From: Candidatus Buchananbacteria bacterium
GTDB lineage: Bacteria; Patescibacteriota; Patescibacteriia; Buchananbacterales; UBA6539
Assembly: GCA_013359225.1 (NCBI GenBank)
Contig: JABWCG010000001.1
Coordinates: 360,021 to 424,020 of the forward strand
Direction: 5' to 3'
DNA: 64,000 nt
Positions within the stretch are counted from its first letter, which is position 1. Each line of letters begins with the position of its first letter. Below the pieces are notes generated by a model, which had not been told where the DNA came from, did not search any database, and worked only from the letters and a program-made list of their open reading frames with translations. Of the stretch, positions 1-61,837 are shown piece after piece. The position numbers were made by a program, and so were the translations under genes.

Positions 1-81
1 ATGAATACTATTTTGTAACTTTTCATCCCATTACGACGTTATATTCACTGAGAGGTATTAAACAAATTGAAAGGATTAACT

Positions 82-663
82 ATGGAGAACCAAGAGTCTG
101 AGATTATTGGTCGTTGCCAGGCGGGCGATTCCCAAGCCTTTGGCCTGCTCTACGACCGATACGTCAAAAAAATCTACGATTTTATTTATTATAAAACCTG
201 GCACAAAGAAACGGCAGAAGATTTAACCAGCCAAACCTTTTTTAAGGCCTTAAATAAAATTAAAGATTTTAATGTGAATAAAGGCACCTTTCAAGCCTGG
301 ATTTACCAGATTGCCCGAAATACTGTTATTGATCACTACCGTTCCAGCAAGGCCGAATTGGCAATTGAGGATGTCTGGGGATTATCGGACGAGTCCGATA
401 TTGAACGCGATGTTGATACTGCCGCCAAGCTAGCCCAGGTTGAACAATATTTGCAAAAATTAAAACCACAGCAACGAGATATTATTATCTTGCGGTTGTG
501 GGAAAATAAAACATATCAAGAAATCAGCGAAATTACCGGATTAAGCCTAACAAACTGCAAAGTCACTTTTTCCCGCGTGATGTCGAAACTACGGGAAGAC
601 AAAGCCTTAATCGTCCTTTATTTAATAATTCTAAGCGAAAAATTACTATGGCTAACGAGATAA
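82..663 (+). CDS. RNA polymerase sigma-70 factor, ECF subfamily
   Basis: The ORF opens at TTG 67, but ATG 82 with AAAGGA 7 nt upstream is the likely start. Region-2-like (LLYDRYVKKIYDFIYY) and region-4 HTH (YQEISEITGLSLTNCKV) motifs are present. The 3' end overlaps the next ORF by 16 nt, as in sigma/anti-sigma coupling. Confidence 0.85.
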   Translation: MENQESEIIGRCQAGDSQAFGLLYDRYVKKIYDFIYYKTWHKETAEDLTSQTFFKALNKIKDFNVNKGTFQAWIYQIARNTVIDHYRSSKAELAIEDVWGLSDESDIERDVDTAAKLAQVEQYLQKLKPQQRDIIILRLWENKTYQEISEITGLSLTNCKVTFSRVMSKLREDKALIVLYLIILSEKLLWLTR

Positions 664-2234
664 AAACTATTTTGGCCGAACTCTACCAGCTTGATCCGGA
701 ACTTAAAAAGTACGAGCCGGATTTGATTAGAATTGTCAGTGAGATTATCAAGGTAAAGCCAAACACTAAATTTGACAAAAAATTCGCAGCGCAGCTACGT
801 AGTCAGCTGCTAAGCGAAACAAAAACCTCTCAATCTAATTCATTACGCGATTTATTTAATATGAAAAAACTAGCTTACGCGCTCGGTGGGGCGGTATTAG
901 CGGCATTAGTAATGATTCCGCTACTAAAAAACCCTCAAACCGGGCAAATGTTAAACCTTAACGCTCCAACCCCGGAAGTTTTGGACATGTCATTAAAAAT
1001 CAGCCGCCTTGGCAACGAAGCATTTGGCTCGCTTGTTAACCAGACCGTTGATCAGCTTGCCGCCGCTCCGCAGGCGATGGCCGACGGCACCGAGGCGACT
1101 AATGAACGGTCGCAGTCTGGTGGCGGCACCCCCGCTGCGCCGGTACCGATGGGATTTGGTGGCGGTGCGGGCGTTACTGGAGTAAGTATTGACGCCAAAA
1201 TGATTGCGCCAGCAGAAGGGTTTGTCACCTATAAATATGTCTATGCCGGTGATGAACTGACACTAGACGAATCAACTGTTGACGTCTTTAAAAGGGTAAA
1301 AGGCTTAAACAACCAATCTTCATTGAATAGCTTACTGTCCGGTTTTAATCTTGGCTTACTCAACCTCGGTTCATTTGGCCAGTCAACCATTGATAACATT
1401 ACCGTGACTGAAAGCGGACGTTATGGTTACATGATTAATATCCAGGCTAATGAAGGTTTTATCAGCATCAACAAAAACTGGTTAACCTGGCCGCAGGTTA
1501 CCTGTACCGATCCAAACTGTGAAAACTTGCGGATTCGCGAAAGTGATATTCCGGCTGACGACGTGCTCATCAAACTGGCTAATGATTTTATTGCCAAACA
1601 TAACATCAGTCTTGAAGGTTATGGCAGTCCAGAGGTTCAGACCAATTGGCGGCTTGCTTACGAGCAAACTCAAAACAAGTCAGAATATTGGTTCCCAGAT
1701 ACTGTTAATGTCATTTATCCTCTTGAGATCAACGGTCAGCAAGCGTATGAACAGTATGGTACCGATAAAGTCGGCTTGATCGTCAGTATCGACGTTCGCG
1801 AGAAGAAAGTTGCCGGTCTAAGCAACCTTACCAACCAAAATTACCAAAGCTCTTCCTATCAGTCCGAAACTTCCGCTGAAAAAATTCTAGCATTCGCCGA
1901 ACGCGGCGGCATTAATGCCGGCTGGTGGGCTCCAGAAGACAGCAAGGTTGTAGAGGTCACTCTTGGCACCCCAACCAAAGAACTTATCAGATATTACCGC
2001 TACCAGAATAATCAAACTGAAGAACTGCTGATTCCGGCCCTCATTTTCCCGGTTACTAAACGTCCGGACAACAGCGAATACTTCTACGCCCAGAGCGTTG
2101 TCGTACCATTGGTTAGCGAGCTGCTCAACCAGGATAACGGCGGCGGGCCAATCAGAATTATGCCGGCCGGCGAACCTGCTCAAATCAAAGCTGACGAACC
2201 AGCGGCTAATCCCGGAATCCAAGAACTAAAATAA
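648..2234 (+). CDS. membrane-anchored protein, putative anti-sigma factor with large extracytoplasmic domain
   Basis: Translationally coupled to the ECF sigma gene. About 75 aa of cytoplasmic N-terminus are followed by a single TM segment (LAYALGGAVLAALVMIPLL), a Gly-rich linker (GGGTPAAPVPMGFGGGAGVTG) and a roughly 400-aa C-terminal domain. The anti-sigma role is inferred from this architecture only. Confidence 0.5.
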   Translation: MANEIKTILAELYQLDPELKKYEPDLIRIVSEIIKVKPNTKFDKKFAAQLRSQLLSETKTSQSNSLRDLFNMKKLAYALGGAVLAALVMIPLLKNPQTGQMLNLNAPTPEVLDMSLKISRLGNEAFGSLVNQTVDQLAAAPQAMADGTEATNERSQSGGGTPAAPVPMGFGGGAGVTGVSIDAKMIAPAEGFVTYKYVYAGDELTLDESTVDVFKRVKGLNNQSSLNSLLSGFNLGLLNLGSFGQSTIDNITVTESGRYGYMINIQANEGFISINKNWLTWPQVTCTDPNCENLRIRESDIPADDVLIKLANDFIAKHNISLEGYGSPEVQTNWRLAYEQTQNKSEYWFPDTVNVIYPLEINGQQAYEQYGTDKVGLIVSIDVREKKVAGLSNLTNQNYQSSSYQSETSAEKILAFAERGGINAGWWAPEDSKVVEVTLGTPTKELIRYYRYQNNQTEELLIPALIFPVTKRPDNSEYFYAQSVVVPLVSELLNQDNGGGPIRIMPAGEPAQIKADEPAANPGIQELK

Positions 2235-2248
2235 AAATTAAACTCTTA

Positions 2249-2290
2249 CAGCCCGAAAATGCCCACTTGTTTTCGGGCTGTAACTTTTCT
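2249..2290. terminator. intrinsic terminator hairpin (CAGCCCGAAAA / TTTTCGGGCTG)
   Basis: An 11-bp perfect stem at 2249-2259 / 2270-2280. T-rich tracts follow on both strands, so it may act bidirectionally. Confidence 0.6.
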
Positions 2291-2370
2291 ACTAGTTCTT
2301 GCGTATTAATTAGTGAAAGGTAACATTTGTTCTTTCCACAACTTTAGTTCTCCAAAACCTCCTTTCAGCC

Positions 2371-2397
2371 AAAAAGCCCGTTTTTCGGGCCTTTTTG
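2371..2397 (+). terminator. short GC hairpin + T-run (GCCCG TTTTT CGGGC CTTTTT)
   Basis: A 5-bp GC stem flanked by an A-run and a T-run. It could function on either strand. Confidence 0.4.
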
Positions 2398-2405
2398 GTA
2401 TGATT

Positions 2406-2435
2406 TGACACGACTACTAGGGTAGTGATATCATT
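2406..2435 (+). promoter_or_regulatory. sigma-70-type promoter for the ArsR-family gene
   Basis: -35 TTGACA at 2406-2411, an 18-bp spacer, and an extended -10 TGaTATCAT at 2427-2435. Confidence 0.5.
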
Positions 2436-2467
2436 TGAATACTTGCTCAAATAATAAATCAATTACA

Positions 2468-2773
2468 ATGCTTAATAATCAGGAGATTCAAAAAAACAAG
2501 AATATTCTAGCCAAAAATGATCGACAGATTAAAAACCGATGTAATCTGCATTATTTGTCGTCAGACCCGACTCGCCTGAAAATCCTGTTATTGCTAAAAA
2601 AACACGAAGAGCTTTGTGTTAGCGATTTGGCAAAAATAATTAATGTTACTGTCAGTGCGGTTTCACATCAGTTAAAATTGCTGGAAAATTGCGGCATTGT
2701 CAAAGGATCAAAAACGGGAAAGACAGTCTGCTACTGTCTGACAGACAAAAACCTTGAACTCATTATTGAATAA
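2468..2773 (+). CDS. ArsR/SmtB-family metalloregulatory transcriptional repressor
   Basis: Winged-HTH signature (DPTRLKILLLL ... LAKIINVTVSAVSHQLKLLENCGIV). The start is moved from the track ORF at 2435 to ATG 2468 because the promoter -10 overlaps 2435. Confidence 0.8.
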   Translation: MLNNQEIQKNKNILAKNDRQIKNRCNLHYLSSDPTRLKILLLLKKHEELCVSDLAKIINVTVSAVSHQLKLLENCGIVKGSKTGKTVCYCLTDKNLELIIE

Positions 2774-2800
2774 AAATAATTTTAAAGAAAGGAAAAACAT

Positions 2801-2913
2801 ATGTGCGATCATTGCTCTTGCGGCCATAATCATGACCACAAAAAAACTACCAAAGCCGAAAATCAGGCTGAGACTACCAAGCAGCAACATGAAAACTGTG
2901 CCTGCTGTTCATA
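2801..2913 (+). CDS. 37-aa Cys/His-rich small protein (metallothionein-like candidate)
   Basis: Read directly: ATG 2801 with AAAGGA 7 nt upstream, ending at TAA 2911-2913. It translates to MCDHCSCGHNHDHKKTTKAENQAETTKQQHENCACCS (6 Cys, 5 His). It is absent from the ORF track because it is under 60 aa. It lies between the ArsR/SmtB gene and the glutaredoxin gene. Confidence 0.45.
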
Positions 2914-2928
2914 AATTAGTGAATAAAT

Positions 2929-3177
2929 ATGATCAACCTAACAATTTACACCACTCCGACTTGCGTCTACTGCAAAATGGCAAAGGAGTTTTTTACCAGT
3001 AATAACATCAACTATCAGGAAATCAATGTTGCTGCTGATCAGGCGGCAGCCCGGACCATGGTTCAAAAATCCGGCCAGCTCGGCGTTCCGGTTATTACCG
3101 TAGAAAAAGATGGCAAAGAGGAAATTATTATTGGATTTGACCGGCCACGACTCTCCCAGTTGTTGGACATCAAATAA
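2929..3177 (+). CDS. glutaredoxin-like protein (NrdH/Grx family, CVYC active site)
   Basis: CxxC motif TPTCVYCKMAKEFF followed by a thioredoxin-fold C-terminus (GVPVITV...IIGFD). Confidence 0.75.
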   Translation: MINLTIYTTPTCVYCKMAKEFFTSNNINYQEINVAADQAAARTMVQKSGQLGVPVITVEKDGKEEIIIGFDRPRLSQLLDIK

Positions 3178-3203
3178 AAAATAATCAATGAAAGGAGTAC
3201 ATT

Positions 3204-3821
3204 ATGAACAATAGCGGATACAAACTGCCTGCATTACCATACAGTTATGATGCGTTGGAACCATTTATCGACCAGCAAACAATGCAGCTGCATCACGACA
3301 AACATCACCAAACGTATGTTGACAAGCTCAACGCGGCGCTAACCGGACATGAAGAACTTAAAATGAAATCTCCCGAAGAGTTAATCAGTAATTTGGAATC
3401 ACTACCAGCTGAAATCAAAACCGCTGTTCAAAATCATGGCGGGGGACACATTAACCATTCGCTGTTTTGGAATATTCTTAAAAAAGATACTGCTATCACC
3501 GGCGAAATTAAAGAAGCCATCACTACCCAATTCGGCAGTTTTGATGCTTTTAAAGAACAATTCAGTAAAGCTGCCCTCAACCAATTCGGTAGCGGCTGGG
3601 CCTGGCTTGTTGTTAATCAGGCCGGAGCACTTGAAATAACTGCTACTGCCAACCAAAACTCGCCACTGTCAGATGGCAAAATGCCAATTCTGGCACTTGA
3701 TATCTGGGAACATGCCTATTATCTCAAATATCAAAACAAGCGTCCGGATTATATTGAAGCCTTCTTTAATATTATCAACTGGGACGAAGTCAATAATAAC
3801 TATCGCGCCGCCAAGAAATAA
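3204..3821 (+). CDS. sodA: superoxide dismutase, Fe/Mn family
   Basis: Hallmark motifs [10 protein letters not shown] and [20 protein letters not shown] strong SD (AAAGGAG) precedes the ATG. Confidence 0.95.
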
Positions 3822-3830
3822 ATAACTTCT

Positions 3831-5471
3831 ATGAAAGCTTCTGACCTACTCGTTCAAGCGCTCGAAAATGAGGGAGTAACCCATATTTTTGGCGTTCCAG
3901 GTGAAGAAAATTTGGATTTGATTGATTCCCTGAGAGATTCAAAAATCAAATTGATTGTCACTCGCCACGAACAAGCCGCCGGTTTTATGGCCGCCACCGT
4001 CGGCCGGCTGACTGGCGTACCCGGCGTTGCACTTTCAACGCTTGGACCGGGTGCCACAAATTTAATTACTGCGGCAGCGTACGCCAATCTTGGCGGCATG
4101 CCGTTGTTTCTATTGACTGGACAAAAACCGGTTAAACGTAGTAAGCAGGGAAAATTTCAAATGATTGATACGGTACAAATTATGAAACCGGTTACCAAAT
4201 TTTCCAAACAGATCGTCTATAGTGAAAGCATCCCTGCGCTGGTTCGCGAAGCATTCAAAAAAGCCGAGAGCGAGCGACCGGGTGCGGTCCACCTGGAATT
4301 GCCCGAAGATGTTGCCGCTGAAAAGGTGACCGAAAAACTTTTCGCAGTCACCCAAGTCCGACGGCCCGTCGCCGACAGCAAGGCAATCAGCCTCGCTGTT
4401 GAAATGATCAAGTCAGCAAAACTACCACTGTTGGTTATTGGCGCCGCTGCCAACCGTAAACAGACTGCTAAAATGCTCCAAGAATTCATAGACAAAACCG
4501 GCATTTACTTTATTGACACCCAAATGGGCAAAGGAGTAATCGATGAACGCCACGAAAAATATCTGGGCACAGCCGCACTATCGGCCAACGATTATGTTCA
4601 CTGTGCGCTTGATCGGGCCGATCTGATTATCAACGTCGGCCACGATATCATTGAAAAGCCGCCGTTTATTATGGCCCCGGATAAAAAACAAAAAGTCATA
4701 CATATCAATTTTTTTCCGGCGGAAATCGATCAAATTTATTTCCCGCAACTTGAGGTGGTTGGAGATATTGCCAACGCCGTTTGGCAAATAAAAGAGCAGC
4801 TCCCGTCGATTAATTGGAATTTTGATTACTACCAAAAAGTCAAAACTCTGTGCGCCGAACAAATGAAAATTGCATCAGAACAGAAGAATTTTCCGTTAAG
4901 TCCTCAATCGATCGTCGAACAAATCCGTCAGGCTATGCCCGACGATGGTATCGTGGCGCTTGATAACGGAATGTATAAAGTGTGGTTTGCCCGGCAGTAC
5001 CAAACATATCAACCAAATACCTTACTGCTTGATAACGCCCTTGCCACAATGGGGGCTGGACTGCCATCGGCAATCGCCGCAAAAATTGTACATCCAAGAA
5101 AAAAGGTGTTAGCCGTTGTTGGCGACGGTGGTTTTATGATGAATTCTCAAGAATTAGAAACAGCTGTCCGGCTGGGACTTAATATAACGATTGTTATTAT
5201 TAACGACAACGGGTTTGGAATGATAAAATGGAAACAACAGGCGATGAAATTTCAAGATTTTGGCTTGAGCTACCATAATCCCGATTTTGTTGCCTATGCT
5301 CAAAGCTACGGTGCCAGCGGTCACCGAATTGAAAACAACCACTCATTAAAAAATACCATTGATCAATGCCTTAATACTCCAGGCGTTCACGTTATTGAAG
5401 TGCCGGTTGATTACTCGTATAACCACAAAATTCTAACCGAAGAATTAGCTAAAAAAACCTGTAATCTATAA
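3831..5471 (+). CDS. thiamine-pyrophosphate enzyme, acetolactate synthase large-subunit-like
   Basis: TPP-enzyme N-terminal motifs (GVPGEENLDLIDSL) and central/C-terminal TPP-binding motifs (GDGGFMMNSQELETA). Confidence 0.8.
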   Translation: MKASDLLVQALENEGVTHIFGVPGEENLDLIDSLRDSKIKLIVTRHEQAAGFMAATVGRLTGVPGVALSTLGPGATNLITAAAYANLGGMPLFLLTGQKPVKRSKQGKFQMIDTVQIMKPVTKFSKQIVYSESIPALVREAFKKAESERPGAVHLELPEDVAAEKVTEKLFAVTQVRRPVADSKAISLAVEMIKSAKLPLLVIGAAANRKQTAKMLQEFIDKTGIYFIDTQMGKGVIDERHEKYLGTAALSANDYVHCALDRADLIINVGHDIIEKPPFIMAPDKKQKVIHINFFPAEIDQIYFPQLEVVGDIANAVWQIKEQLPSINWNFDYYQKVKTLCAEQMKIASEQKNFPLSPQSIVEQIRQAMPDDGIVALDNGMYKVWFARQYQTYQPNTLLLDNALATMGAGLPSAIAAKIVHPRKKVLAVVGDGGFMMNSQELETAVRLGLNITIVIINDNGFGMIKWKQQAMKFQDFGLSYHNPDFVAYAQSYGASGHRIENNHSLKNTIDQCLNTPGVHVIEVPVDYSYNHKILTEELAKKTCNL

Positions 5472-5475
5472 TTAT

Positions 5476-6840
5476 ATGGCTCTACAATCAATTAACCCGG
5501 CTACAGAAGAAATTTTTTCCAAAACCGAAGAATTAACCAATGAACAGATTAAAGAAAAAATTACTTTGGCGGATCATACTTTTGCCAAATGGAGGACCAC
5601 AACATTTGAAGACCGGGCAAAATTAATTAATGAGGTAGCTAAAATTTTAAGATCCGAAGCCCAGACGATTGGCGAAATTATGACCAAAGAAATGGGCAAA
5701 CCTATCAAACAAGCCATAGCCGAAGTCGAAAAGTGTGCTTGGGTTTGCGAATATTATGCTAAAGAAGCACCTAAATTTTTAACTCCGGAAAAAATTACCA
5801 CCGATGCCAGCGAAAGTCTGGTTCGATACGATCCGATCGGTATTGTGCTTGCAATTATGCCATGGAATTTCCCGTTTTGGCAGGTTATTCGTTTTGCCGC
5901 CCCGGCTCTTATGGCCGGAAATGTCGGACTGCTCAAGCATGCCTCCAATGTTCAGCTGGCGGCTAAAAAAATTGAAGAAATTTTTTTGCGTGCCGGCATT
6001 CCGGTTGGGGTATTTCAAAATCTTGCCATTAGTTCCGGAAAGGTTGAAACAATCATTCGCGATCCAAGGGTTAAGGCGGTCACTTTAACCGGCAGTGAAC
6101 ATGCTGGCGCTAAAGTTGCAGCTTTGGCCGCTTCAGAAATTAAAAAGTCTGTCTTAGAACTTGGGGGCAGCGATCCCTTTATCGTCCTGGAAGATGCGGA
6201 CATAGCAAATGCCTGTTCAGTCGCCGTTACCGCCCGCAATATCAATAACGGACAAAGCTGCATCGCCGCTAAACGGTTCATTGTGGTTTCAAGCGTTGCT
6301 GAAGAATTCAAAAAATTATTTAAAGAAAAGTTCGAAGCGTTAAAAATTGGCGACCCAATGGCTGAAACAACCGATATCGGCCCGGTTGTCAACAAGCAGG
6401 CTCTGGAAGAACTAGAAAATCAAATCAAAAAATCAGTTGCCGCCGGCGCCAAAATTCTAACTGGCGGAAAGCGGGTAGGAAACACCGGCTACTTCTTACA
6501 GCCAACCATTCTGACTGAGGTCGCACCGGGCATGCCAGCCTACCACGAAGAATTTTTTGGACCGGTTGCATCAGTTATTGTCGTTAAAGACGAGGCTGAA
6601 GCCGTTCAGGTTGCAAACGATACCCATTTTGGTTTAGGTGCCTCAATCTGGACAAGTAACATCAGCCGTGCCAAACAGCTTATTCCGCAAATTGACGCCG
6701 GCGCTGTCTTTGTTAACGGTCTGGTAAAATCCGATCCACGCTTGCCATTTGGCGGTGAAAAGCGTTCTGGTTTTGGTCGTGAATTATCACACCACGGCAT
6801 CAAAGAATTTGTTAATATAAAATCGGTCTGGATTAAATAA
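5476..6840 (+). CDS. NAD(P)-dependent aldehyde dehydrogenase family protein
   Basis: ALDH signatures: the catalytic-Cys region GQSCIAAKR and the Glu motif LELGGSDP. Confidence 0.85.
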   Translation: MALQSINPATEEIFSKTEELTNEQIKEKITLADHTFAKWRTTTFEDRAKLINEVAKILRSEAQTIGEIMTKEMGKPIKQAIAEVEKCAWVCEYYAKEAPKFLTPEKITTDASESLVRYDPIGIVLAIMPWNFPFWQVIRFAAPALMAGNVGLLKHASNVQLAAKKIEEIFLRAGIPVGVFQNLAISSGKVETIIRDPRVKAVTLTGSEHAGAKVAALAASEIKKSVLELGGSDPFIVLEDADIANACSVAVTARNINNGQSCIAAKRFIVVSSVAEEFKKLFKEKFEALKIGDPMAETTDIGPVVNKQALEELENQIKKSVAAGAKILTGGKRVGNTGYFLQPTILTEVAPGMPAYHEEFFGPVASVIVVKDEAEAVQVANDTHFGLGASIWTSNISRAKQLIPQIDAGAVFVNGLVKSDPRLPFGGEKRSGFGRELSHHGIKEFVNIKSVWIK

Positions 6841-6857
6841 TAAAACAGCCAAAAAAT

Positions 6858-7325
6858 ATGAAACTAAAAATTGGCCAAAAGGCTCCAGCTTTCTTATTGC
6901 CGGATCAAAATGGCACACTTCATAAACTTAGCCAATACGCCGGCGGCTGGCTACTGATCTATTTTTATCCCAAAGACGACACTCCCGGCTGTACTAAAGA
7001 AGCCTGCACCATTAAAGATAATTTTCCGGCATTTGGTGAGTTAAAAGCAAATGTGGTTGGCATCAGCGCCGATTCAGTCGCCAGCCATAAAAAATTTGCC
7101 GTTAAATATAAACTACCGTTTACCATTCTATCTGATGAAGAGAAAAAAATTATTACAGCTTATGGCGTCTACGGCAAAAAAAGTTTTATGGGAAAAACCT
7201 TTATGGGCATTAAAAGAACTTCATTTCTTATTGATCCTAAAGGCACAATCGTCAAAATTTATGAAAATGTCAAACCGCCACTTCATGCCAAAGAGGTAAT
7301 TGACGACCTTAAAGCCTTAAGCTAA
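6858..7325 (+). CDS. bcp: thioredoxin-dependent peroxiredoxin Bcp (PrxQ)
   Basis: The motif FYPKDDTPGCTKEAC contains the peroxidatic Cys of Bcp/PrxQ peroxiredoxins. Confidence 0.9.
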   Translation: MKLKIGQKAPAFLLPDQNGTLHKLSQYAGGWLLIYFYPKDDTPGCTKEACTIKDNFPAFGELKANVVGISADSVASHKKFAVKYKLPFTILSDEEKKIITAYGVYGKKSFMGKTFMGIKRTSFLIDPKGTIVKIYENVKPPLHAKEVIDDLKALS

Positions 7326-7338
7326 AAATTTGCCAAAT

Positions 7339-7375
7339 AATCCGCGCCGGTATTGTCGCGGATTATTTTTATTTA
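7339..7375 (+). terminator. intrinsic terminator after bcp (AATCCGCG ... CGCGGATT + T-run)
   Basis: An 8-bp GC-rich stem at 7339-7346 / 7357-7364, followed by TTATTTTTATTT. Confidence 0.7.
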
Positions 7376-7404
7376 ATTTTTTGGTATAATGAAATAACTG
7401 CCCT

Positions 7405-8940
7405 ATGATTGAAAAATTATTCAATAAATTTAGAAGAATAGTTGACTTGATTGAGAACTCCAATATCCATCTAGGGTATTTTATTTTTACCTTTTTATCA
7501 ATCATCACTATAAGAAATTTTTTAGAGCTCTTCTCTACCAAAATAGAGCTTAATACGGCTGTAGTTTTTTTTCATTTCTATATAGGATTTATTTCACTTG
7601 CCACACTATTAATTTTAACTTTTTATATTTTAACAAGAGAATCAATTGTTAAAAGTATTAAAATAGTTTTGATTGGTTTTTCGATCCTGCCACTACCACC
7701 AATAATAGATTTAATTGCTACCGGAGGGAGGGGATTCGCCATGACCTATCTGTTACCAGAATTTCATGATCATATCATATTGCGATTTTTTACATTTTTT
7801 GGACATTTTGAAGAACGGGGAGTGTCCTTAGGTATTAAAACTGAAATCTTTATTATTCTGGTGTTAACTTTTTTGTACTTTTTGGCAAAAAAACATGGCG
7901 TCTTTAGAAGTATCGCCAACGCCTTCATAGTTTATATCATAATTTTTGGTTTTTTTGCGATTCCTTTCATCTTAAAAGGAATTTTTCTATTGCTAGGCAT
8001 CAACTATGACTACTCCGTCGATGCATGGGAAATATTATCTTTCTTATTCCTGATGATGTTTTTCTGCGGAATAATTATTTTATATTTAATAGACAAAAAA
8101 AACTTTATCACTATTGCAAAAGATGCCAGATATTTGCGACTCTCATACTATTTAGGAATGTTTTTCTGCGGAATAATTGTGGCAAAATCAACGGCAACAC
8201 TTCCCATAACGGCGCAGAATTTATTTGACTTTTTATTCACTGCCATGGCAATAACCGCCGCCTGGTTGTTTTCAGTAACCACTAATAATATCGCTGATTA
8301 TCATATTGACAAAATTTCAAACAAAAATCGACCGCTAGTTCGCCGCACAATCGCTATTGAAGATTACAAAAAAATTTCCACCCTACTTTTAGTCTGGGCA
8401 ATAATATGTTCAACTGCCGTTGGACCGGACACCCTATTTCTAGTTATTTTATTTATTTCTAGTTATTTTATTTATTCCATGCCACCAATTAGGCTGAAGC
8501 GGGTTATAGTTTTATCAAAGCTGATAATTGCGTTAAATTCCTTAGTGCTGGTTTTATTAGGTTTTTTCACTATCACCAAAACTATCAAGAGTTTCCCGGG
8601 CATCTTATTTCCGACATTGCTTATTGGTATAACCATATTAGCTAATTTTATTGATATCAAAGATTACGAAGGGGATAGAAAGAATAACATTAAAACCCTA
8701 CCAACCGTCCTAGGATTAAAATTAACAAAAATAATCATTGGATTCTCCTTCGTATTTTTCTACACCATATTATATGTATTACTACCGTATTATAATTTAG
8801 GAAATTTTTGGAATTTTTTATTCATACCACTCGGATTGCTACAATTTTATTTTGTCAATCAAAAAAAATACCAAGACAGTTATATTATCGGAACCTGCGT
8901 TATAACGGTCTTCTTGTTTGCAATTTTAAATATCTTCTAA
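7405..8940 (+). CDS. polytopic membrane protein; C-terminal UbiA-family prenyltransferase domain fused to an N-terminal membrane domain
   Basis: Two Asp-rich motifs typical of UbiA-family prenyltransferases (NNIADYHIDK and DIKDYEGDRKNN) lie in the C-terminal half. The N-terminal 280 aa are hydrophobic with no recognisable motif. The gene is preceded by an extended -10 TGgTATAAT at 7381-7389. Confidence 0.5.
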   Translation: MIEKLFNKFRRIVDLIENSNIHLGYFIFTFLSIITIRNFLELFSTKIELNTAVVFFHFYIGFISLATLLILTFYILTRESIVKSIKIVLIGFSILPLPPIIDLIATGGRGFAMTYLLPEFHDHIILRFFTFFGHFEERGVSLGIKTEIFIILVLTFLYFLAKKHGVFRSIANAFIVYIIIFGFFAIPFILKGIFLLLGINYDYSVDAWEILSFLFLMMFFCGIIILYLIDKKNFITIAKDARYLRLSYYLGMFFCGIIVAKSTATLPITAQNLFDFLFTAMAITAAWLFSVTTNNIADYHIDKISNKNRPLVRRTIAIEDYKKISTLLLVWAIICSTAVGPDTLFLVILFISSYFIYSMPPIRLKRVIVLSKLIIALNSLVLVLLGFFTITKTIKSFPGILFPTLLIGITILANFIDIKDYEGDRKNNIKTLPTVLGLKLTKIIIGFSFVFFYTILYVLLPYYNLGNFWNFLFIPLGLLQFYFVNQKKYQDSYIIGTCVITVFLFAILNIF

Positions 8941-8958
8941 GCGCAAAAAATATAAATC

Positions 8959-8979
8959 AAGGGCTGGCAGCCTTTTTTT
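8959..8979 (+). terminator. possible short terminator (AAGGGCT GGC AGCCTT + T7)
   Basis: A 7-bp stem containing a G-T wobble, a 3-nt loop, then a T-run. Confidence 0.4.
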
Positions 8980-9007
8980 ATTGCTAATTTTTCAGTATAA
9001 TATATTC

Positions 9008-10447
9008 ATGTCAAACGCCAGTTTAACCAAGAACACTACGTACTATACCATTGCCTTAACTATCCAGAAAATTCTGGCTTTTGTTTATTTTTGGCTTATT
9101 TCAAATGCTTTATTCGCTGAACAGTTAGGCCAATATGTCTTTGCCCTGTCTTTTACCACCTTGTTTTCAATTTTCATTGACCTTGGCCTATCGCCAATCT
9201 TAACTCGAGAAGCCTCAAAGGATAAGCAGTCAGCCAATCAATATCTCCAAAATGTCTTAGGTATTAAGCTGCCGCTAACAATCATCACCCTAGCCGCAGC
9301 ATGGCTTGTCATCAATATTTCAAACAAACCAGACGACGTCCGACTTTTGGTCTACCTGGCCAGTTTCATTATGACGCTTGACTCGTTCTCTTTGAGTTTT
9401 TGGGTTATCTTTCGTGCCCGCCAGGTCTTAAAATATGAAAGCCTCACAACCGTTGCCGTACAAATAATTATCTTTACTCTTGGCGTCATTGCCCTTAAAA
9501 CCTCCGGCCAAGTCAAAGATTTAATTATTGCCTTACTGGTTGCCAGTATTTTTAACTTTTTAGTTTCTCTAGCATTACTTAAATTCAAACTTAAATTTTC
9601 AATTCGACCACGGTTTGACAAGACTATCGCTATTCACTTTCTTAAAATTGTCCCGGCTTTTGCCATTGCCGGAATTTTTGTCAAAATTTACAACACCTCA
9701 GATTCAGTTTTGCTTAGTTACCTTGACTCAGATGAAGCGGTTGGATTCTTTGCCGTCCCGGCCAAGGTGGTATATGCCTTACAACAAATTATCCCGGCTG
9801 CCTTTGCAGCCGTAATCTTTCCAGCGTTTAGTTATTATCACAAAAACTCTAAACCATTACTTGAAAAAACTTTTACTAAGGCCTTTAACTACCTAACAAT
9901 CATTAGTTTGCCGCTTACTGCCGGATTAATGGCAACCATTCCGGAAGTTACCCAAACAGTTTGGCCGGAATATACTGCCGTGGTTCCGACTTTTTATGTT
10001 ATGACGTTAGCCATTCCTTTTATATTTCTGGCGTTTCCCACTGGTTATTTATTAAACGCCTGCGATCGACAAAAAAACACCACCATCAACCGGGGCATTA
10101 TTACCTTTTTGGCCGTTACTCTTAATCTCATCTTAATTCCCAAGCTCAGTTATTTTGGCGCCGGAGTAACTTTTTTAATTACCAACTTTATTTTACTATT
10201 TCTTGACTTAATTTGGGTAAAACAAACCATCGTTTTGGAAACAAAAAAATTACTAAAGACCATTTTCAAATCATCATTAGCCGCCGCTCTGATGATTATT
10301 TTGGTTATCGCTATCAAATCATATTTTAATCTGCTGGTTATTATTCCGCTGGGTGCGCTGACATACTTTGGCGTACTACTGATGCTAAGGGGGATACAAA
10401 TCAAAGAACTAAATGAAATTTTTAACAAAGGTTTTCGCAATGGCTAA
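9008..10447 (+). CDS. polysaccharide/oligosaccharide flippase (Wzx-like, MOP superfamily)
   Basis: About 14 predicted TM helices arranged like an O-unit flippase. A -10 TATAAT at 8996-9001 lies 6 nt before ATG 9008, which suggests a leaderless transcript. The longer 8981 start in the track is less likely. Confidence 0.65.
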   Translation: MSNASLTKNTTYYTIALTIQKILAFVYFWLISNALFAEQLGQYVFALSFTTLFSIFIDLGLSPILTREASKDKQSANQYLQNVLGIKLPLTIITLAAAWLVINISNKPDDVRLLVYLASFIMTLDSFSLSFWVIFRARQVLKYESLTTVAVQIIIFTLGVIALKTSGQVKDLIIALLVASIFNFLVSLALLKFKLKFSIRPRFDKTIAIHFLKIVPAFAIAGIFVKIYNTSDSVLLSYLDSDEAVGFFAVPAKVVYALQQIIPAAFAAVIFPAFSYYHKNSKPLLEKTFTKAFNYLTIISLPLTAGLMATIPEVTQTVWPEYTAVVPTFYVMTLAIPFIFLAFPTGYLLNACDRQKNTTINRGIITFLAVTLNLILIPKLSYFGAGVTFLITNFILLFLDLIWVKQTIVLETKKLLKTIFKSSLAAALMIILVIAIKSYFNLLVIIPLGALTYFGVLLMLRGIQIKELNEIFNKGFRNG

Positions 10448-11630
10448 TGAAATCAAAAAAAGCTTACTAGTAACTTTGGATTTCCCGCCAAACAATGTCG
10501 GCGGCGTTGCTACTTTTTATTATAATGTTTGCAAAAATTTGCCCCCCGATAAAATTGTTGTCTTAGCCCCCGACCATCCAGACGCTAACAACTTTGACCA
10601 GAAGCAACATTTCACCATTATCAGAAAAAAATTGCTAAACCAATTTCCGCAAAAAATGCCAGCCGGGCTCGGAGGGATAATAAAAATCGCCGCGACTGTC
10701 CGTTGGCTTTCACTGATAAAAAATCTTAATGAAATTGTGAAAACCCACCAAATCAAGCTTATTCAAGTCGGTCAAGTATTACCGATCGGAACCTTGGCGT
10801 TGGTGCTCAAAAAAAGACTAAAAATCCCTTATATCTTTTATGCTCACGGTCTTGATATTTTATTGCCGCAAAAATTCATGCGCAAAAAGACAATATTAAA
10901 AAATATTATTAAAGAATCGTCAGGTATTGTCGCCAACAGTCACTTCACCAAAGATGAACTGTTAAAATTAGGAGCTAACAATGGCCAAGTTACCGTCGTT
11001 TATCCGGGAGCAAACATTAAAAATCATCATGTCGCCGACTCCGAAATTGCAGCACTAATCAAAAAACACCAACTGGAAAACAAAAAAATTCTTTTAACGG
11101 TTGGCCGGCTAGTCGAACGAAAAGGGCATGACGTTGTTATTAAATCATTGCCGGCAATCATAAAAAAAATCCCAAATATTACCTATCTTATCGTGGGCGA
11201 CGGTCCACGAAAAACTCAACTGGTCAACTTAGTACATCAGCTTCGACTGGGCCACTATGTCCAGTTTGTTGATCGCGTGGCAAACAGCATCTTGCCCGCT
11301 TACTATCAGCTGGCTGACGTCTTTATCATGCCATCGCGCCGGATCAACGGCTATGACGTTGAAGGCTTTGGCATTGTTTTCATTGAAGCCAATCTGTTTG
11401 GCAAACCGGTCATCGGCGGACGTAGCGGGGGAGTTGGCGAAGCAATTGTTGACGGTCAAACCGGCATACTTGTCAACCCAACAAGTGAAGAAGAAGTAAG
11501 CCGCTCGGTAATAAAATTACTCACCGATCCGGCCCTAGCCGAACGGCTAGGGCTCCAGGGTATGGAACGCGCATTGCGGGATTTTGATTGGCAAACTCAG
11601 ACTAAAAAAATAAAAGATTTATTAAGCTAA
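10440..11630 (+). CDS. glycosyltransferase family 4 (GT4, group 1)
   Basis: GT4 C-terminal signature EGFGIVFIEANLFGKPVIGGRSGGVGEAIVDGQTG. ATG 10440 overlaps the upstream stop (ATGGCTAATG). The track's alternative start at 10413 is possible. Confidence 0.85.
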   Translation: MANEIKKSLLVTLDFPPNNVGGVATFYYNVCKNLPPDKIVVLAPDHPDANNFDQKQHFTIIRKKLLNQFPQKMPAGLGGIIKIAATVRWLSLIKNLNEIVKTHQIKLIQVGQVLPIGTLALVLKKRLKIPYIFYAHGLDILLPQKFMRKKTILKNIIKESSGIVANSHFTKDELLKLGANNGQVTVVYPGANIKNHHVADSEIAALIKKHQLENKKILLTVGRLVERKGHDVVIKSLPAIIKKIPNITYLIVGDGPRKTQLVNLVHQLRLGHYVQFVDRVANSILPAYYQLADVFIMPSRRINGYDVEGFGIVFIEANLFGKPVIGGRSGGVGEAIVDGQTGILVNPTSEEEVSRSVIKLLTDPALAERLGLQGMERALRDFDWQTQTKKIKDLLS

Positions 11631-11635
11631 ACACT

Positions 11636-12313
11636 ATGGCTGAAATCAGCATTGTTATCCCGGTATATAATGCCCAAAAAACTCTACCAAATTGTCTGAA
11701 AAGTATTTTAAATCAAACATTTAAAAATTTTGAGATTATTGCCGTTAACGATGGTTCAACTGACGGCAGTCTGGCTGAATTAGAACAATATCGGAACAAA
11801 ATAACTATCATTAATCAACAAAATAAAGGTGCGGCTCACGCCCGAAACCAAGGTGCAAAAATTAGCCGTTCACCATTTATCATTTTTTGCGACGCCGATA
11901 TTATTATGTATCCAAAAATGCTTGAAACAATGATTAAAACGCTCAAGGTCAACCAAAACGCTTCGTACGCATATAGCTCATTTAAATTTGGCTTCAAAAA
12001 TTTTAAACTGTTTCCTTTTGACGGCGAAAAATTACGACAAATGCCGTACATCCACACCACGTCGCTTATTCGTCGCGAACATTTTCCCGGCTTTGACGAA
12101 AAACTAAAACGATTCCAGGACTGGGATTTATGGTTAACCATGTACAAACGGGGGTACGTCGGACACTTTATTCCTCAAGTTTTATTTGAGGTTGCTTCCG
12201 GCGGGACAATGAGCTCCTGGCTGCCGAAATTCATATACCGTTTTCCATTCTTAAAAAAGGTTAACGCCTATCAAGCCGCGAAAAAAATAATCCAGAAAAA
12301 ACATAACCTATGA
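11636..12313 (+). CDS. glycosyltransferase family 2
   Basis: GT2 N-terminal motif ISIVIPVYNAQKTL...IIAVNDGSTDGS and a DxD-like motif (CDADI). Confidence 0.85.
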   Translation: MAEISIVIPVYNAQKTLPNCLKSILNQTFKNFEIIAVNDGSTDGSLAELEQYRNKITIINQQNKGAAHARNQGAKISRSPFIIFCDADIIMYPKMLETMIKTLKVNQNASYAYSSFKFGFKNFKLFPFDGEKLRQMPYIHTTSLIRREHFPGFDEKLKRFQDWDLWLTMYKRGYVGHFIPQVLFEVASGGTMSSWLPKFIYRFPFLKKVNAYQAAKKIIQKKHNL

Positions 12314-12795
12314 TTGAAAAAGAAAAGAGCCAAGATCCGGAAAATTTTCAAGTATCATTAAAAATTTTACTTAAAAAAAATAATCAGTACCTACTTTTAA
12401 ATGTTGCTAAAACCGATCGGGTTGCCGGAATGGAAAAATTTGATTTACCCGGAGGACGGATCAATCGAGACGAACTCAACCTTCCTTTTCATCAGCTTGT
12501 TGACCGGGAAGTCAAAGAAGAGTTGGGGCCATTAATCACTTACAAACTAAGGCCAGACCCCGTTTCTCTCGGCCAGGCGATCATACCCGATTTCATTGAA
12601 ATTAAGCCAGGAGAAACCAGAAGCCGATTCTTTGTTCTGTTTGAGGCAGAATATCTTTCGGGAGAAATAGAAATATCGGATGAACATTCAGACTACCAAT
12701 GGACCGACTTGCAGCCAAATCACATTGAACAATTATTTACCCCATTACTATGGGATGTGCTAAAAAATTATTTTGATTGGAACACTAACATATGA
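12310..12795 (+). CDS. NUDIX-family hydrolase (atypical Nudix-box spacing)
   Basis: GGRINRDE ... REVKEELG resembles the Nudix box GX5EX7REUXEEXGU, but with 10 rather than 7 residues before RE. Its 4-nt overlaps with both neighbours place it in an operon. Confidence 0.55.
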   Translation: MIEKEKSQDPENFQVSLKILLKKNNQYLLLNVAKTDRVAGMEKFDLPGGRINRDELNLPFHQLVDREVKEELGPLITYKLRPDPVSLGQAIIPDFIEIKPGETRSRFFVLFEAEYLSGEIEISDEHSDYQWTDLQPNHIEQLFTPLLWDVLKNYFDWNTNI

Positions 12796-13469
12796 TGAGA
12801 TTACAAAAATTCTTGGCGAGCGCGGGAGTGGCTTCCAGACGGGCCGCCGAAGAATTAATTAGTGAAGGTAAAATTAAAATTAACGGCAAAGTTATTACTA
12901 AATTAGGAACAAGTATTGACGAAAATCTTGATGTTGTAGAATTTCAAAACAAAAAAATCACTCTGCCGCAGGATAAAATTTATATTGCGCTTCATAAGCC
13001 GGTTGGCTACATTTGCAGCACCAGCGACGAACAGGGCGAAACCGTACTTAGCTTAGTTAAATCAAAACAACGAATTTTTCCGGTCGGTCGACTCGATAAA
13101 GATTCCAGCGGTTTAATCATCCTAACCAACGACGGTGAATTTGCAAATCGCCTTACCCATCCGCGCTACGGCAGTGAAAAAGAATATTTTGTCACCCTCG
13201 ACCGAGATCTAAAGGAAGAAGACGTTAAGAAAATCCAGCGGGGAATGGTAATTGACGGCAAACGCTTACGTTCAGTTAAAGTTAACGATATTCGTAATAA
13301 AAGTGCCAAATTTATCCTACAGGAAGGCATTAACCGGCAAATCAGACGGATGCTTGGAAAACTTGGATATACTGTTATAAAATTAAAAAGAGTCAGGATC
13401 GGCAATTTGGAGCTGGGGGATTTAAAAATCGGCCAAAGTAAAAATATCCACAAAGAAGATGTCGGCTAA
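12792..13469 (+). CDS. rRNA pseudouridine synthase, RsuA/RluB family
   Basis: An N-terminal S4 domain (RLQKFLASAGVASRRAAEELI) and the catalytic motif VGRLDKDSSGLIILTNDG. Confidence 0.85.
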   Translation: MMRLQKFLASAGVASRRAAEELISEGKIKINGKVITKLGTSIDENLDVVEFQNKKITLPQDKIYIALHKPVGYICSTSDEQGETVLSLVKSKQRIFPVGRLDKDSSGLIILTNDGEFANRLTHPRYGSEKEYFVTLDRDLKEEDVKKIQRGMVIDGKRLRSVKVNDIRNKSAKFILQEGINRQIRRMLGKLGYTVIKLKRVRIGNLELGDLKIGQSKNIHKEDVG

Positions 13470-13481
13470 AAAAGTACCATT

Positions 13482-14264
13482 ATGAACAACCCGGAATTAT
13501 CAATCATTATTGTCAGCTGGAACGTTAAAGATTTGCTCAAGAAATGTCTCCAGTCAATTGAAAAATACCGAAACAAGCTGGCGGTTGAAATTATTGTTGT
13601 TGATAACGCCTCCAAAGACGGGACTGTTGAAATGCTCAAAACAGAATTTCCGGATGTTCGACTGATAACTAACAGTAATAATCTCGGTTTTGCCGCCGCC
13701 AATAACCAAGGCATCTTGCGTAGCCAAGGAGATTATATCTTATTGCTGAATCCCGATACTGAAGTCATTAAAGACACACTCAACAAAATGCTTAATTTTA
13801 TAAAAATCAGACCACAGATTGGCATTCTGGGTTGCAAGCATCTCAACCCTGACTGGACGCTCCAGCCGTCAGTCAGGCGTTTTCCGGCATTCTGGGCAAT
13901 ATTTTTTATTCTGACTAAATTGTACAAAATTTTTCCAAACATTCCTCCAATCTACTACTATTTTGCCGAGGACTTTAATTATAAAATTTCCCAACCAATT
14001 GATCAGGTTGCGGGCTCATGCATGATGATTCGTCGGCAGACCATTGAAGAAATCGGTTTGCTTGATGAGAGATTTTTTATCTGGTTTGAAGAAGTTGATC
14101 TCTGCAAACGCTCTAAAGATGCCGGCTGGGAAGTCTGGTACACACCAGACGCTGAACTGATTCATTACGGCGGACAAAGTTTTCGCCAGGTCGGAACCTG
14201 GAAAAAACAAAAAATATTCTTTCAAAGCGCCATTTATTACTTCCGCAAACACGGTCTACGCTAA
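13482..14264 (+). CDS. glycosyltransferase family 2
   Basis: LSIIIVSWNVKDLL...VVDNASKDGT, and a DxD region LLLNPDTE. Confidence 0.85.
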   Translation: MNNPELSIIIVSWNVKDLLKKCLQSIEKYRNKLAVEIIVVDNASKDGTVEMLKTEFPDVRLITNSNNLGFAAANNQGILRSQGDYILLLNPDTEVIKDTLNKMLNFIKIRPQIGILGCKHLNPDWTLQPSVRRFPAFWAIFFILTKLYKIFPNIPPIYYYFAEDFNYKISQPIDQVAGSCMMIRRQTIEEIGLLDERFFIWFEEVDLCKRSKDAGWEVWYTPDAELIHYGGQSFRQVGTWKKQKIFFQSAIYYFRKHGLR

Positions 14265-14270
14265 CAACCA

Positions 14271-14298
14271 AAAACGCCCCGCAGATGGGGCGTTTTTT
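14271..14298 (+). terminator. strong intrinsic terminator (AAAACGCCCC GCAGAT GGGGCGTTTT)
   Basis: A 10-bp perfect stem with a T-run. It closes the glycosyltransferase operon. Confidence 0.8.
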
Positions 14299-14326
14299 GA
14301 CAATATCAACAAAAAGAGGATAAAAT
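14297..14326 (+). promoter_or_regulatory. sigma-70-type promoter for the downstream leader/sRNA
   Basis: -35 TTGACA at 14297-14302, an 18-bp spacer, and -10 TAAAAT at 14321-14326. Confidence 0.5.
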
Positions 14327-14403
14327 CAAACTGTAACTTTACCCCGTGAGTTACCCTAACCGACGATCAGGCCGATCGTCAACCAGCCAAGGAGGGTAGG
14401 CTC

Positions 14404-14445
14404 ATGCGTCCGACAACTTGTTGGGCATGTACGGGAAGGAGGTGA
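14404..14445 (+). CDS. candidate leader micro-ORF (13 aa, MRPTTCWACTGRR)
   Basis: ATG 14404 lies 7 nt after AAGGAGGG (14389-14396). The TGA stop at 14443-14445 is embedded in the next SD-like element. It may be translated only as part of a regulatory mechanism. Confidence 0.2.
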   Translation: MRPTTCWACTGRR

Positions 14446-14500
14446 TCCGATCTAATCCCCAGGAAAGGAGGTGAACATCGGTTCACATTGCAGTTTGTAC

Positions 14501-14540
14501 GGGCTCCTGTGTCACTTGACGCAGGGCCCATTTTTATTTG
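14501..14540 (+). terminator. terminator-like hairpin inside the leader (GGGCtCCTG ... CAGGGCCC + ATTTTTATTTG)
   Basis: An 8-bp stem with one bulge and a 12-nt loop, followed by a T-rich tract. A -10-like TAGAAT at 14560-14565 follows, so the downstream gene may have its own weak promoter. Confidence 0.55.
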
Positions 14541-14578
14541 TCTTTTTAAGCCTGCTGGGCTAGAATAAAATTGCCAAT

Positions 14579-61720: not shown

Positions 61721-61837
61721 TTAATTACAGTCGCAAGTACAGCCCGGTTCGTGATCACAGCAATTTTTGCAAACGTCGCTCTGACAGCTGCAACGGATAT
61801 CATTGGTGATTTCCTCACCGCAATGTTGACACTCCAT
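61721..61837 (-). CDS. 38-aa Cys-rich small protein (10 Cys; metallothionein-like / zinc-ribbon-like)
   Basis: Read directly on the minus strand: ATG at 61837, TAA at 61721-61723. It translates to MECQHCGEEITNDIRCSCQSDVCKNCCDHEPGCTCDCN. It lies 26 nt downstream of the gap stop and shares CxHC / CSC / NCxC motifs with the peptide at 2801-2913. The 270-aa + strand ORF covering it is antisense to gap and is rejected. Confidence 0.4.
   Translation of the reverse strand: MECQHCGEEITNDIRCSCQSDVCKNCCDHEPGCTCDCN

Follow-up and report, generated by a model that had tools for sequence, protein, structure and literature searches.

The SmtA/BmtA metallothioneins are an established example of small Cys/His-rich metal-binding peptides controlled by ArsR-family regulators, and the mycobacterial Cu(I) metallothionein MymT is a comparable peptide under a CsoR-family repressor. 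The Zn4 cluster of SmtA/BmtA is held by 9 Cys and 2 His. In the present study, a 37-aa Cys/His-rich peptide (peptide 1), encoded directly downstream of an ArsR/SmtB-family regulator gene in a 64,000-nt stretch of the genome of Candidatus Buchananbacteria bacterium (contig JABWCG010000001.1, positions 360,021–424,020; this whole stretch is hereafter called the window), is compared with these and other described systems. Bioinformatics analysis indicated that peptide 1 is the product of a genuine gene, and that its closest likeness is to the N-terminal nickel site of HypB.

The N-terminal extension of HypB contains a conserved CxxCGC motif of picomolar affinity for Ni(II), which is coordinated in square-planar geometry by the thiolate groups of Cys2, Cys5 and Cys7 together with the N-terminal amino group; in vivo, the initiator Met is cleaved off (PMC12284835). 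The His-rich N-termini of rhizobial HypB proteins bind 4–9 Ni ions, and have been proposed to serve as nickel stores (PMC7055735). A small partner of an ArsR-family protein has also been described in Streptomyces griseus, where SrnR needs the Ni-binding protein SrnQ in order to regulate the superoxide dismutase (SOD) gene sodF (PMC7055735; PMC11672702). SrnQ is described as unlike any known protein (PMC7055735).

The peptide 1 gene and its ortholog

The gene, its Shine–Dalgarno (SD) sequence and its ortholog on one of the comparison contigs (L004) are located as follows:

2801–2914, + strand: peptide 1 gene, encoding the 37-aa Cys/His-rich peptide; ATG at 2801, TAA stop at 2912–2914
2787–2795, + strand: SD sequence of the peptide 1 gene, GAAAGGAAA; 7 nt from AGGA to ATG; identical GAAAGGAAA in L004
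L004, 386–490: peptide 1 ortholog MCEHCSCGHDQKKVAKPTNQAESAEKKHEDCACC, 34 aa, uncalled, in the same slot between arsR and the glutaredoxin-like gene (grx)

Translation of the 37 codons yields MCDHCSCGHNHDHKKTTKAENQAETTKQQHENCACCS, with 6 Cys and 5 His. This composition, as well as the start at ATG 2801 behind a well-spaced SD, had been proposed in an earlier examination of the window made from its letters alone (the sequence-only reading), and both were confirmed. The Cys and His residues form two clusters. The N-terminal one, contained in the start MCDHCSCGHNHDH, comprises C2, H4, C5, C7 and H9/H11, whereas H30, C33, C35 and C36 make up the C-terminal one; the two are joined by a Lys/Thr/Gln/Glu linker. 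The open reading frame (ORF) is separated by 27 nt from the arsR stop codon and by 14 nt from the start of grx, and its position directly after an ArsR/SmtB-family regulator, also part of the sequence-only reading, is supported by the PF01022 and NF033788 matches of the latter. Databases list peptide 1 solely as a called gene of a single 2.2-kb Logan contig, whose entire length matches the window without differences. The peptide seems to be without annotation in the NCBI record, as the sequence-only reading held, whereas its ArsR neighbour has NCBI names.

Composition alone does not place the ORF beyond chance, and peptide 1 is judged to be real because it is conserved. Mononucleotide shuffles of the window contained about one ORF of 25–60 aa with at least 6 Cys per shuffle; among the short ORFs of the real window, peptide 1 and the ORF at 61721–61837 (peptide 2) are the richest in Cys. 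The comparison loci were contigs bearing the closest homologs of the window ArsR. On L004, where ArsR is 85% identical, 156 nt with no called gene lie between arsR and grx, and this interval holds the 34-aa ortholog. The SD and ATG of the two genes are in exact alignment, the length difference is assigned to a 6-nt in-frame indel, and all 6 Cys are kept together with His4, His11 and His30. At the conserved residues (Cys, Ser, Gly, His and Ala), synonymous codons were swapped between the window and L004 (TGC/TGT, TCT/TCA, GGC/GGT, CAT/CAC and GCC/GCT, respectively).

The selection tests for peptide 1 compare one sequence pair over 34 codons. Nei–Gojobori analysis gave proportions of nonsynonymous (pN) and synonymous (pS) differences of 0.17 and 0.97, respectively; for the neighbouring genes of the same genome pair, pN and pS were 0.085 and 0.88 (ArsR), 0.12 and 0.78 (Grx), and 0.13 and 0.77 (SOD). 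Read in frame, peptide 1 had a pN/pS of 0.19, compared with 1.04 and 1.9 when the frame was shifted. The 31 differences are distributed over codon positions 1, 2 and 3 as 9, 3 and 19, an excess at the third position with P ~8 × 10−5 by permutation. Since synonymous conservation thus differs from nonsynonymous conservation, the equality of the two that the sequence-only reading had named as evidence against the ORF was not found, and the ORF is protein-coding. Judged by this comparison, peptide 1 is a genuine protein gene under purifying selection.

Likeness to the N-terminal nickel site of HypB

The closest likeness of peptide 1, overlooked by the sequence-only reading, is to the N-terminal CxxCGC nickel site of HypB and the His-rich tract that accompanies it. 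A pattern taken from the start of the peptide, ATG-C-[DE]-H-C-x-C-G-H, was used to scan a JGI metagenome collection of 241 million records. The information content of the pattern was estimated at 39 bits, for which about 1–4 chance matches are expected in a collection of that size. Six matches were obtained, with no ortholog of peptide 1 among them. Four of the six are the first codons of longer proteins, which start with MCDHCGCGHPDGAQ... (L017) and MCDHCGCGHPHDHSHEHNH... (L018–L020, close relatives of each other). The two that were tested, L017 and L018, are HypB according to TIGR00073 (233 and 276 bits, cut-off 121). The remaining matches, L021 and L022, look like chance matches.

In peptide 1 and HypB, Cys2, Cys5, Cys7 and Gly8 stand in the same register from the initiator Met (MCDHCSCG in the window, MCEHCSCG in L004), and Cys is the second residue, which would allow Met removal and leave a free amine beside Cys2. 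The metagenomic HypB starts (MCDHCGCGHPHDH...) and the start of peptide 1 (MCDHCSCGHNHDH...) are both followed by a His/Asp-rich stretch; the three closely related HypB proteins read on GHPHDH, compared with GHNHDH in peptide 1, at positions outside the search pattern.

The differences are also considerable. Ser stands in place of the motif Gly6 in both peptide 1 orthologs, leaving the full CxxCGC consensus incomplete. Peptide 1 is free-standing, has only 37 aa, and shows neither a G3E GTPase domain nor a PF02492 match, and it possesses an additional conserved C-terminal HxxCxCC cluster. Its gene is found in an ArsR/oxidative-stress operon, whereas that of HypB belongs to a hyp/hydrogenase cluster. 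As the pattern was taken from peptide 1, identity at the pattern positions is given by construction, and a likeness of about 13 residues is too short to show common descent. Homology to HypB is therefore not claimed, the match being short and retrieved by a peptide-derived pattern.

Comparison with known small metal-binding proteins

Peptide 1 shares with the SmtA/BmtA and SmtB systems the layout of a small Cys/His-rich protein beside an ArsR/SmtB-family regulator, and a presumed role in the buffering of thiophilic metals. Membership in the SmtA/BmtA family was rejected, as neither PF02069 nor any other metallothionein profile matched; the sequence-only reading, too, had been unable to place the peptide among SmtA/BmtA patterns. 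Peptide 1 has 6 Cys, its gene is co-directional and predicted to be co-transcribed with that of the regulator rather than divergent from it, and the regulator lacks the SmtB alpha5 site. The regulatory analogy with SmtB/smtA that had been drawn from the sequence is thus weaker than it seemed: a regulator of that family is present, but without the alpha5 site, and it is the glutaredoxin-like gene, rather than the peptide gene, that accompanies this regulator in a conserved manner.

The likeness to SrnR/SrnQ is one of layout only: an ArsR-family DNA binder, an adjacent small putative metal-binding protein and a SOD gene (Fe-type in Streptomyces, Fe/Mn here). Unlike that system, relatives of the window locus keep the regulator, the operator and the Grx-like gene without the peptide, which is indirect comparative evidence against the requirement for a partner. 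The C-terminal tail of SlyD and the Hpn/Hpn-like proteins of Helicobacter pylori resemble peptide 1 in being short, probably disordered, His/Cys-rich and Ni/Zn-holding. However, peptide 1 is much poorer in His, carries a defined CxxCxC site at its N-terminus and shows no sequence similarity to them, and those proteins are tied to hydrogenase/urease maturation. MymT, likewise a small Cys-rich cytosolic metal-sequestering peptide under a metal/stress repressor, differs in its CsoR-family regulation and its Cys pattern, and no similarity to it was detected in any search.

Distribution of peptide 1 and the variable slot after arsR

No further relatives of peptide 1 were obtained from sequence databases. 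Both hmmscan against Pfam-A (E up to 10) and the NCBIfam search returned 0 families for peptide 1, and the L004 ortholog matched no family either. A word-index search of 5.8 billion proteins, whose 40-aa minimum was satisfied by extending the peptide with 5 upstream codons, recovered nothing besides peptide 1, and the same was true of phmmer against 1.84 billion representatives. The PDB sequence search with peptide 1 gave a single chance-level match, and tblastn of both peptides against plasmids gave none. Two distinct peptide 1 sequences are therefore on hand. The sequence-only reading had suggested an undescribed metal-buffering or redox family; metal binding remains the best reading of the peptide, while the word "family" is generous for two distinct sequences.

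When genome contigs were scanned with the window ArsR, two distant matches only were found (a Firmicutes metagenome-assembled genome and Neobacillus). On the Neobacillus drentensis contig L003, an ORF of 45 aa whose product contains three pairs of vicinal Cys (MSFINSLIGKEVSKASSCCGVEIKEVEKTEEESCCGTSQANPSCC) is present at 1948–2085 (− strand), divergent from an ArsR-family gene, and it is possibly another small Cys-rich ORF adjoining an ArsR gene. The next ORF on the same strand (1468–1911, −) encodes 147 aa rich in Cys pairs, and is glyoxalase/CadI-like as judged by eye only.

Among the closer relatives, arranged here by the identity of their ArsR to that of the window, the slot after arsR is occupied as follows:

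L004 (ArsR 85%): the 34-aa peptide 1 ortholog, then grx
L005/L006 (ArsR 71%): grx, after an 18-nt gap; the rest of the operon is the same
L008–L011 (ArsR 60%): an unrelated 71-aa CxxC...CxxC protein with a weak DUF1451 zinc ribbon (L008, 385–600), then grx
L012–L014 (ArsR 53%): a peptide of 49 aa that carries CxCxxC at its N-terminal end and, at its C-terminal end, a SEC-C zinc motif (25 bits, cut-off 20.4) (L012, 1109–1258); no grx
L015/L016 (ArsR 52%): grx directly, flanked by DsbA/DsbB/DsbD genes

The synteny that the sequence-only reading had proposed as a check is thus present in L004, but absent from other relatives, both nearer and farther. Since the slot varies, peptide 1 is a lineage-restricted accessory gene, and since the relatives with 71% and 52% ArsR identity have the same operator and Grx without the peptide, it is dispensable. 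By comparison of these loci, the conserved core of the operon is ArsR together with the glutaredoxin-like gene. The small Cys proteins that fill the slot in L008 and L012 are unrelated to each other. To judge from the sequences, the position after arsR looks like a recurrent slot for small metal-binding proteins.

The short ArsR, its probable operator and the predicted operon

The promoter, the operator and the genes that accompany peptide 1 in the predicted transcript are located as follows:

2405–2434, + strand: sigma-70-like operon promoter, TTGACA, 18 nt, TG-n-TATCAT; 11 of 12 matches
2433–2452: putative ArsR operator, palindrome ATTTGAATACTTGCTCAAAT, overlapping or just following the −10 element; proposed from conservation upstream of arsR
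2468–2773, + strand: ArsR/SmtB-family regulator of 101 aa, a short form in which the alpha5 metal site is missing; PF01022 (2.6 × 10−17), NF033788 (79 bits, cut-off 55)
2929–3177, + strand: glutaredoxin-like protein with a CVYC active site; PF00462 (7 × 10−17), TIGR02196 (82 bits, cut-off 88.55; closest to the YruB family, below the cut-off)
3204–3821, + strand: Fe/Mn superoxide dismutase; PF00081, PF02777
3831–5471, + strand: thiamine pyrophosphate (TPP) enzyme, acetolactate synthase large-subunit-like; NF006187 (868 bits, cut-off 509)
5476–6840, + strand: aldehyde dehydrogenase, succinic semialdehyde dehydrogenase-like (below the cut-off); PF00171 in the syntenic locus L005
6858–7325, + strand: thiol peroxidase Bcp/PrxQ, last gene of the predicted operon; PF00578, NF006960 (163 bits, cut-off 140)

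Alignment to SmtB revealed that the alpha5 ligand His106 is replaced by Asn in the window ArsR, and that its C-terminus precedes the positions of His117 and Glu120. The entire ArsR clade (six sequences from Patescibacteria-like contigs) is short at the C-terminus, whereas distant homologs retain the DxH...H..E tail. The alpha3 "CVC" is reduced to one Cys (plus Asp), and ELCVSDL is invariant in the clade. Cys25 is retained in most of its members, while Cys91 (CYCL) is confined to the two peptide-bearing genomes. The clade is linked throughout to glutaredoxin-like and Dsb/peroxiredoxin genes, the glutaredoxin-like gene accompanying it in L004, L005, L008 and L015. These features suggest that the clade acts as a thiol/redox sensor rather than as a classical metal sensor, and we infer that the thiol-disulfide neighbours favour a redox or thiol-stress regulon. 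With the alpha5 site missing from ArsR, induction by metal would be hypothetical.

The TTGACA...TATCAT arrangement is also found 5' of arsR in L005, L009, L012 and L015, and in the window two terminator-like hairpins (2246–2283 and 2376–2390) precede the promoter. The operator palindrome, present in one copy in the 64-kb window, is kept 5' of the arsR orthologs of L004, L005, L008/L009 and L015, and in a looser form in L012. Its consensus across five lineages, ATTTGAATAnTTGyTCAAAT, lies just past the arsR −10 element. It is probably the autoregulatory operator of the short ArsR clade, to which ArsR itself would bind. No terminator-like site was predicted in the intergenic gaps from arsR through the Bcp gene, and the transcript therefore presumably comprises arsR, peptide 1, grx, the SOD gene, the genes of the TPP enzyme and aldehyde dehydrogenase, and Bcp/PrxQ. 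The Grx, SOD and Bcp genes into which the sequence-only reading saw the peptide lead were all recovered. The Rfam scan of the whole 64 kb at the gathering threshold produced zero matches (no tRNA, riboswitch or other known RNA), and there is thus no evidence of an RNA element.

Just 5' of the operon, an extracytoplasmic function (ECF) sigma factor gene (67–663, +) overlaps the start of a gene for a 528-aa protein (648–2234, +), which matches neither Pfam nor NCBIfam. Because the two genes keep their synteny in L005/L006, the 528-aa protein may be an anti-sigma factor or a partner of the sigma factor. Elsewhere in the window, a 161-aa ORF within a glycosyltransferase/polysaccharide cluster (12310–12795, +) has no Pfam match at E ≤ 10−6.

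Peptide 2 belongs to a separate family

The second short Cys-rich ORF of the window and its orthologs are located as follows:

61721–61837, − strand: peptide 2, 38 aa, 10 Cys; located 3' of gap (GAPDH), with a hairpin terminator and a YerC/TrpR-like gene after it
L023, 3547–3663: peptide 2 ortholog MDCEYCGNEITDDIKCSCQGNICKNCCDHEPGCNCECN; GAPDH 88% identical
L027, 3615–3737: peptide 2 ortholog MECTKCSMSIDDNSVCSCESGVCCHCCGCDSGCTCGCKEK; GAPDH 75% identical
L026, 3558–3683: peptide 2 ortholog MECEQCGLPLDEQTSCLCEMIICYHCCSCESGCRCGCHERS; GAPDH 70% identical

The product of this ORF is MECQHCGEEITNDIRCSCQSDVCKNCCDHEPGCTCDCN, for which an exact look-up found no record. Its family comprises proteins of 38–41 aa in four Buchananbacteria-like genomes, encoded downstream of GAPDH with a hairpin terminator next; no ortholog was found in L024 and L025 (GAPDH 80% and 79% identical, respectively). 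All members share 10 invariant Cys in the pattern M-x-C-x2-C-x9-C-x-C-x4-C-x2-C-C-x5-C-x-C-x-C, whereas the two His are not conserved. The pN/pS was 0.25 in frame versus 0.63 and 2.2 out of frame. Apart from a weak, sub-threshold Metallothio_5 match of the L026 copy (E = 0.14), no family match was obtained. By these comparisons peptide 2 is a real gene of a separate, all-Cys family, and a candidate for an all-Cys metallothionein-like or zinc mini-protein.

The sequence-only reading had presented the two ORFs as paralogs, real members of one family that share an N-terminal M-x-C-[DQ]-H-C. Both are real genes, but the single family could not be upheld. Peptide 1 starts with M-C-D-H-C, and C-[DQ]-H-C is not conserved among the peptide 2 orthologs, in which "Q-H" is replaced by E-Y, E-Q or T-K. 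In addition, hhalign of the peptide 1 family against the peptide 2 family returned a probability of 0.85%, and His are conserved in the peptide 1 pair but not in the peptide 2 orthologs. Paralogy was therefore rejected. With two unrelated Cys-rich families, the argument from paralogy for peptide 1 falls, and its own ortholog evidence carries it.

Proposed function of peptide 1 and alternative readings

Peptide 1 may serve as an accessory buffer or chaperone that binds Ni/Zn/Cu and functions much like a metallothionein, a reading that we hold with about even confidence. It would be translated as a cytosolic peptide upon release of the ArsR repressor, alongside the thiol/oxidative-stress enzymes. 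Because Cys is a permissive second residue, Met1 is proposed to be cleaved off, as it is from HypB in E. coli. A high-affinity Ni(II) site of the HypB type, which Zn(II) or Cu(I) might also occupy, could then arise from the exposed amine and the Cys2, Cys5 and Cys7 thiolates, with help from His4, His9 and His11. H30-x2-C33-x-C35-C36 could provide a second site or, by way of the flexible linker of Lys/Thr/Gln/Glu, close the first. Under such stress, the peptide would sequester thiophilic or redox-relevant metal ions that had been released or had become toxic. The zinc-type small Cys proteins borne in the slot by other members of the ArsR clade (DUF1451-like in L008, SEC-C in L012) speak for this reading.

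Several observations weigh against it. The HypB likeness was found with a pattern from the peptide itself and covers only about 13 residues, and the Gly of CxxCGC is replaced by Ser in both orthologs. The window ArsR is without the canonical alpha5 metal site; two sequences are known, and the 71% and 52% ArsR relatives that keep the same operator and Grx have no peptide. Hydrogenase, hyp, urease and nickel-transport genes are absent from the annotated genes (1–18001, and a few genes at 59.8–63.8 kb). AlphaFold single-sequence models of both peptides were unusable, with no confident fold (pLDDT 56 for peptide 1 and 61 for peptide 2); such values would fit a peptide that folds only around metal, yet they are no evidence for such folding. 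Finally, the thiol/oxidative-stress neighbours suit a purely redox role of the Cys equally well.

In that redox role, peptide 1 would either supply a thiol buffer, sacrificed or regenerated in use, or act in a disulfide relay as substrate of the Grx-like protein, in a cell with little low-molecular-weight thiol, metals being inessential. Co-transcription with the Grx-like, SOD and Bcp genes agrees with this, as do the constant ties of the ArsR clade to thiol-disulfide genes (Grx; DsbA/DsbB/DsbD in L015) and the 14-nt gap to a Grx-like gene with a weak SD, which suggests coupled expression. We nevertheless consider a pure thiol peptide unlikely, for it leaves unexplained the conserved His4, His11 and His30 and the N-terminal Cys2/Cys5/Cys7 spacing typical of metal sites, and in relatives the Grx-like gene does without the peptide. 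It is slightly less probable that peptide 1 is an SrnQ-like co-sensor which, when loaded with metal, binds the alpha5-less ArsR and alters its affinity for DNA, thereby tying Ni/Zn status to the SOD operon. The order of an alpha5-less ArsR and a HypB-like Ni-motif peptide, with an Fe/Mn SOD nearby, recalls the Streptomyces system; a small Cys protein follows arsR directly in three lineages of the clade, and ArsR Cys91 occurs only in the two genomes with the peptide. However, this correlation amounts to effectively one clade, the slot is filled by small proteins of unrelated kinds, and, as L005/L006 and L015/L016 retain the operator, the short ArsR and Grx without any peptide, the repressor works without peptide 1. 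A bolder form of the idea, in which a free-standing HypB-type Ni peptide is the detachable sensor subunit of a site-less ArsR, Ni/Zn status gates the oxidative-stress regulon, and the slot is a swappable sensor cassette, is regarded as improbable and offered as speculation.

The doubt that the ORF encodes a functional protein at all, being instead a chance ORF, a leader peptide or upstream ORF of the Grx gene, or a precursor of a ribosomally synthesized and post-translationally modified peptide (RiPP), draws on the frequency of Cys-rich short ORFs in shuffled windows (about one each), on the two sequences known, and on the stop codon 14 nt before the Grx start, where translation could serve coupling alone. 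It is very hard to reconcile with the 9/3/19 codon pattern, with a pN/pS of 0.19 in frame against at least 1.0 out of frame, and with the retention of every Cys although synonymous sites are saturated. A leader peptide or attenuator was rejected, given that the 14 nt to the next ATG are too few for a terminator or antiterminator, that none is predicted there and that Rfam gave no match, and a RiPP precursor was rejected for want of an adjacent modifying enzyme. The least probable reading of all is a tiny Fe–S or other cofactor protein that reports or repairs oxidative damage with both Cys clusters as ligands. Six conserved Cys in two clusters with a flexible linker, encoded in an oxidative-stress operon, would suit it, but peptide 1 resembles no Pfam or NCBIfam Fe–S family, no Fe–S assembly genes are nearby, and a CxxCxC placed right at the N-terminus and accompanied by a His-rich tail typically marks a Ni/Zn site.

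Full-text literature searches for Patescibacteria metallothioneins and for ArsR-linked small Cys-rich proteins returned nothing relevant. In the literature searched, the combination of a HypB-type N-terminal site, a free-standing format and an oxidative-stress operon, as deduced for peptide 1, is undescribed. The practical value of the finding is modest, given two sequences, dispensability in close relatives and a chemistry deduced from motifs. The locus nevertheless illustrates that conserved genes of fewer than 40 codons evade annotation in candidate-phyla genomes, two unrelated families of Cys-rich mini-proteins having been missed within a 64-kb window. If the improbable detachable-sensor reading were true, a two-piece metalloregulator with a 37-residue peptide as one of its parts would exist in the minimal genomes of Patescibacteria. 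If peptide 1 binds metal, as the preferred buffer or chaperone reading supposes, Patescibacteria would have their first described metallothionein-like or metallochaperone peptide, and the nickel site of HypB would be able to exist as an independent mini-protein.

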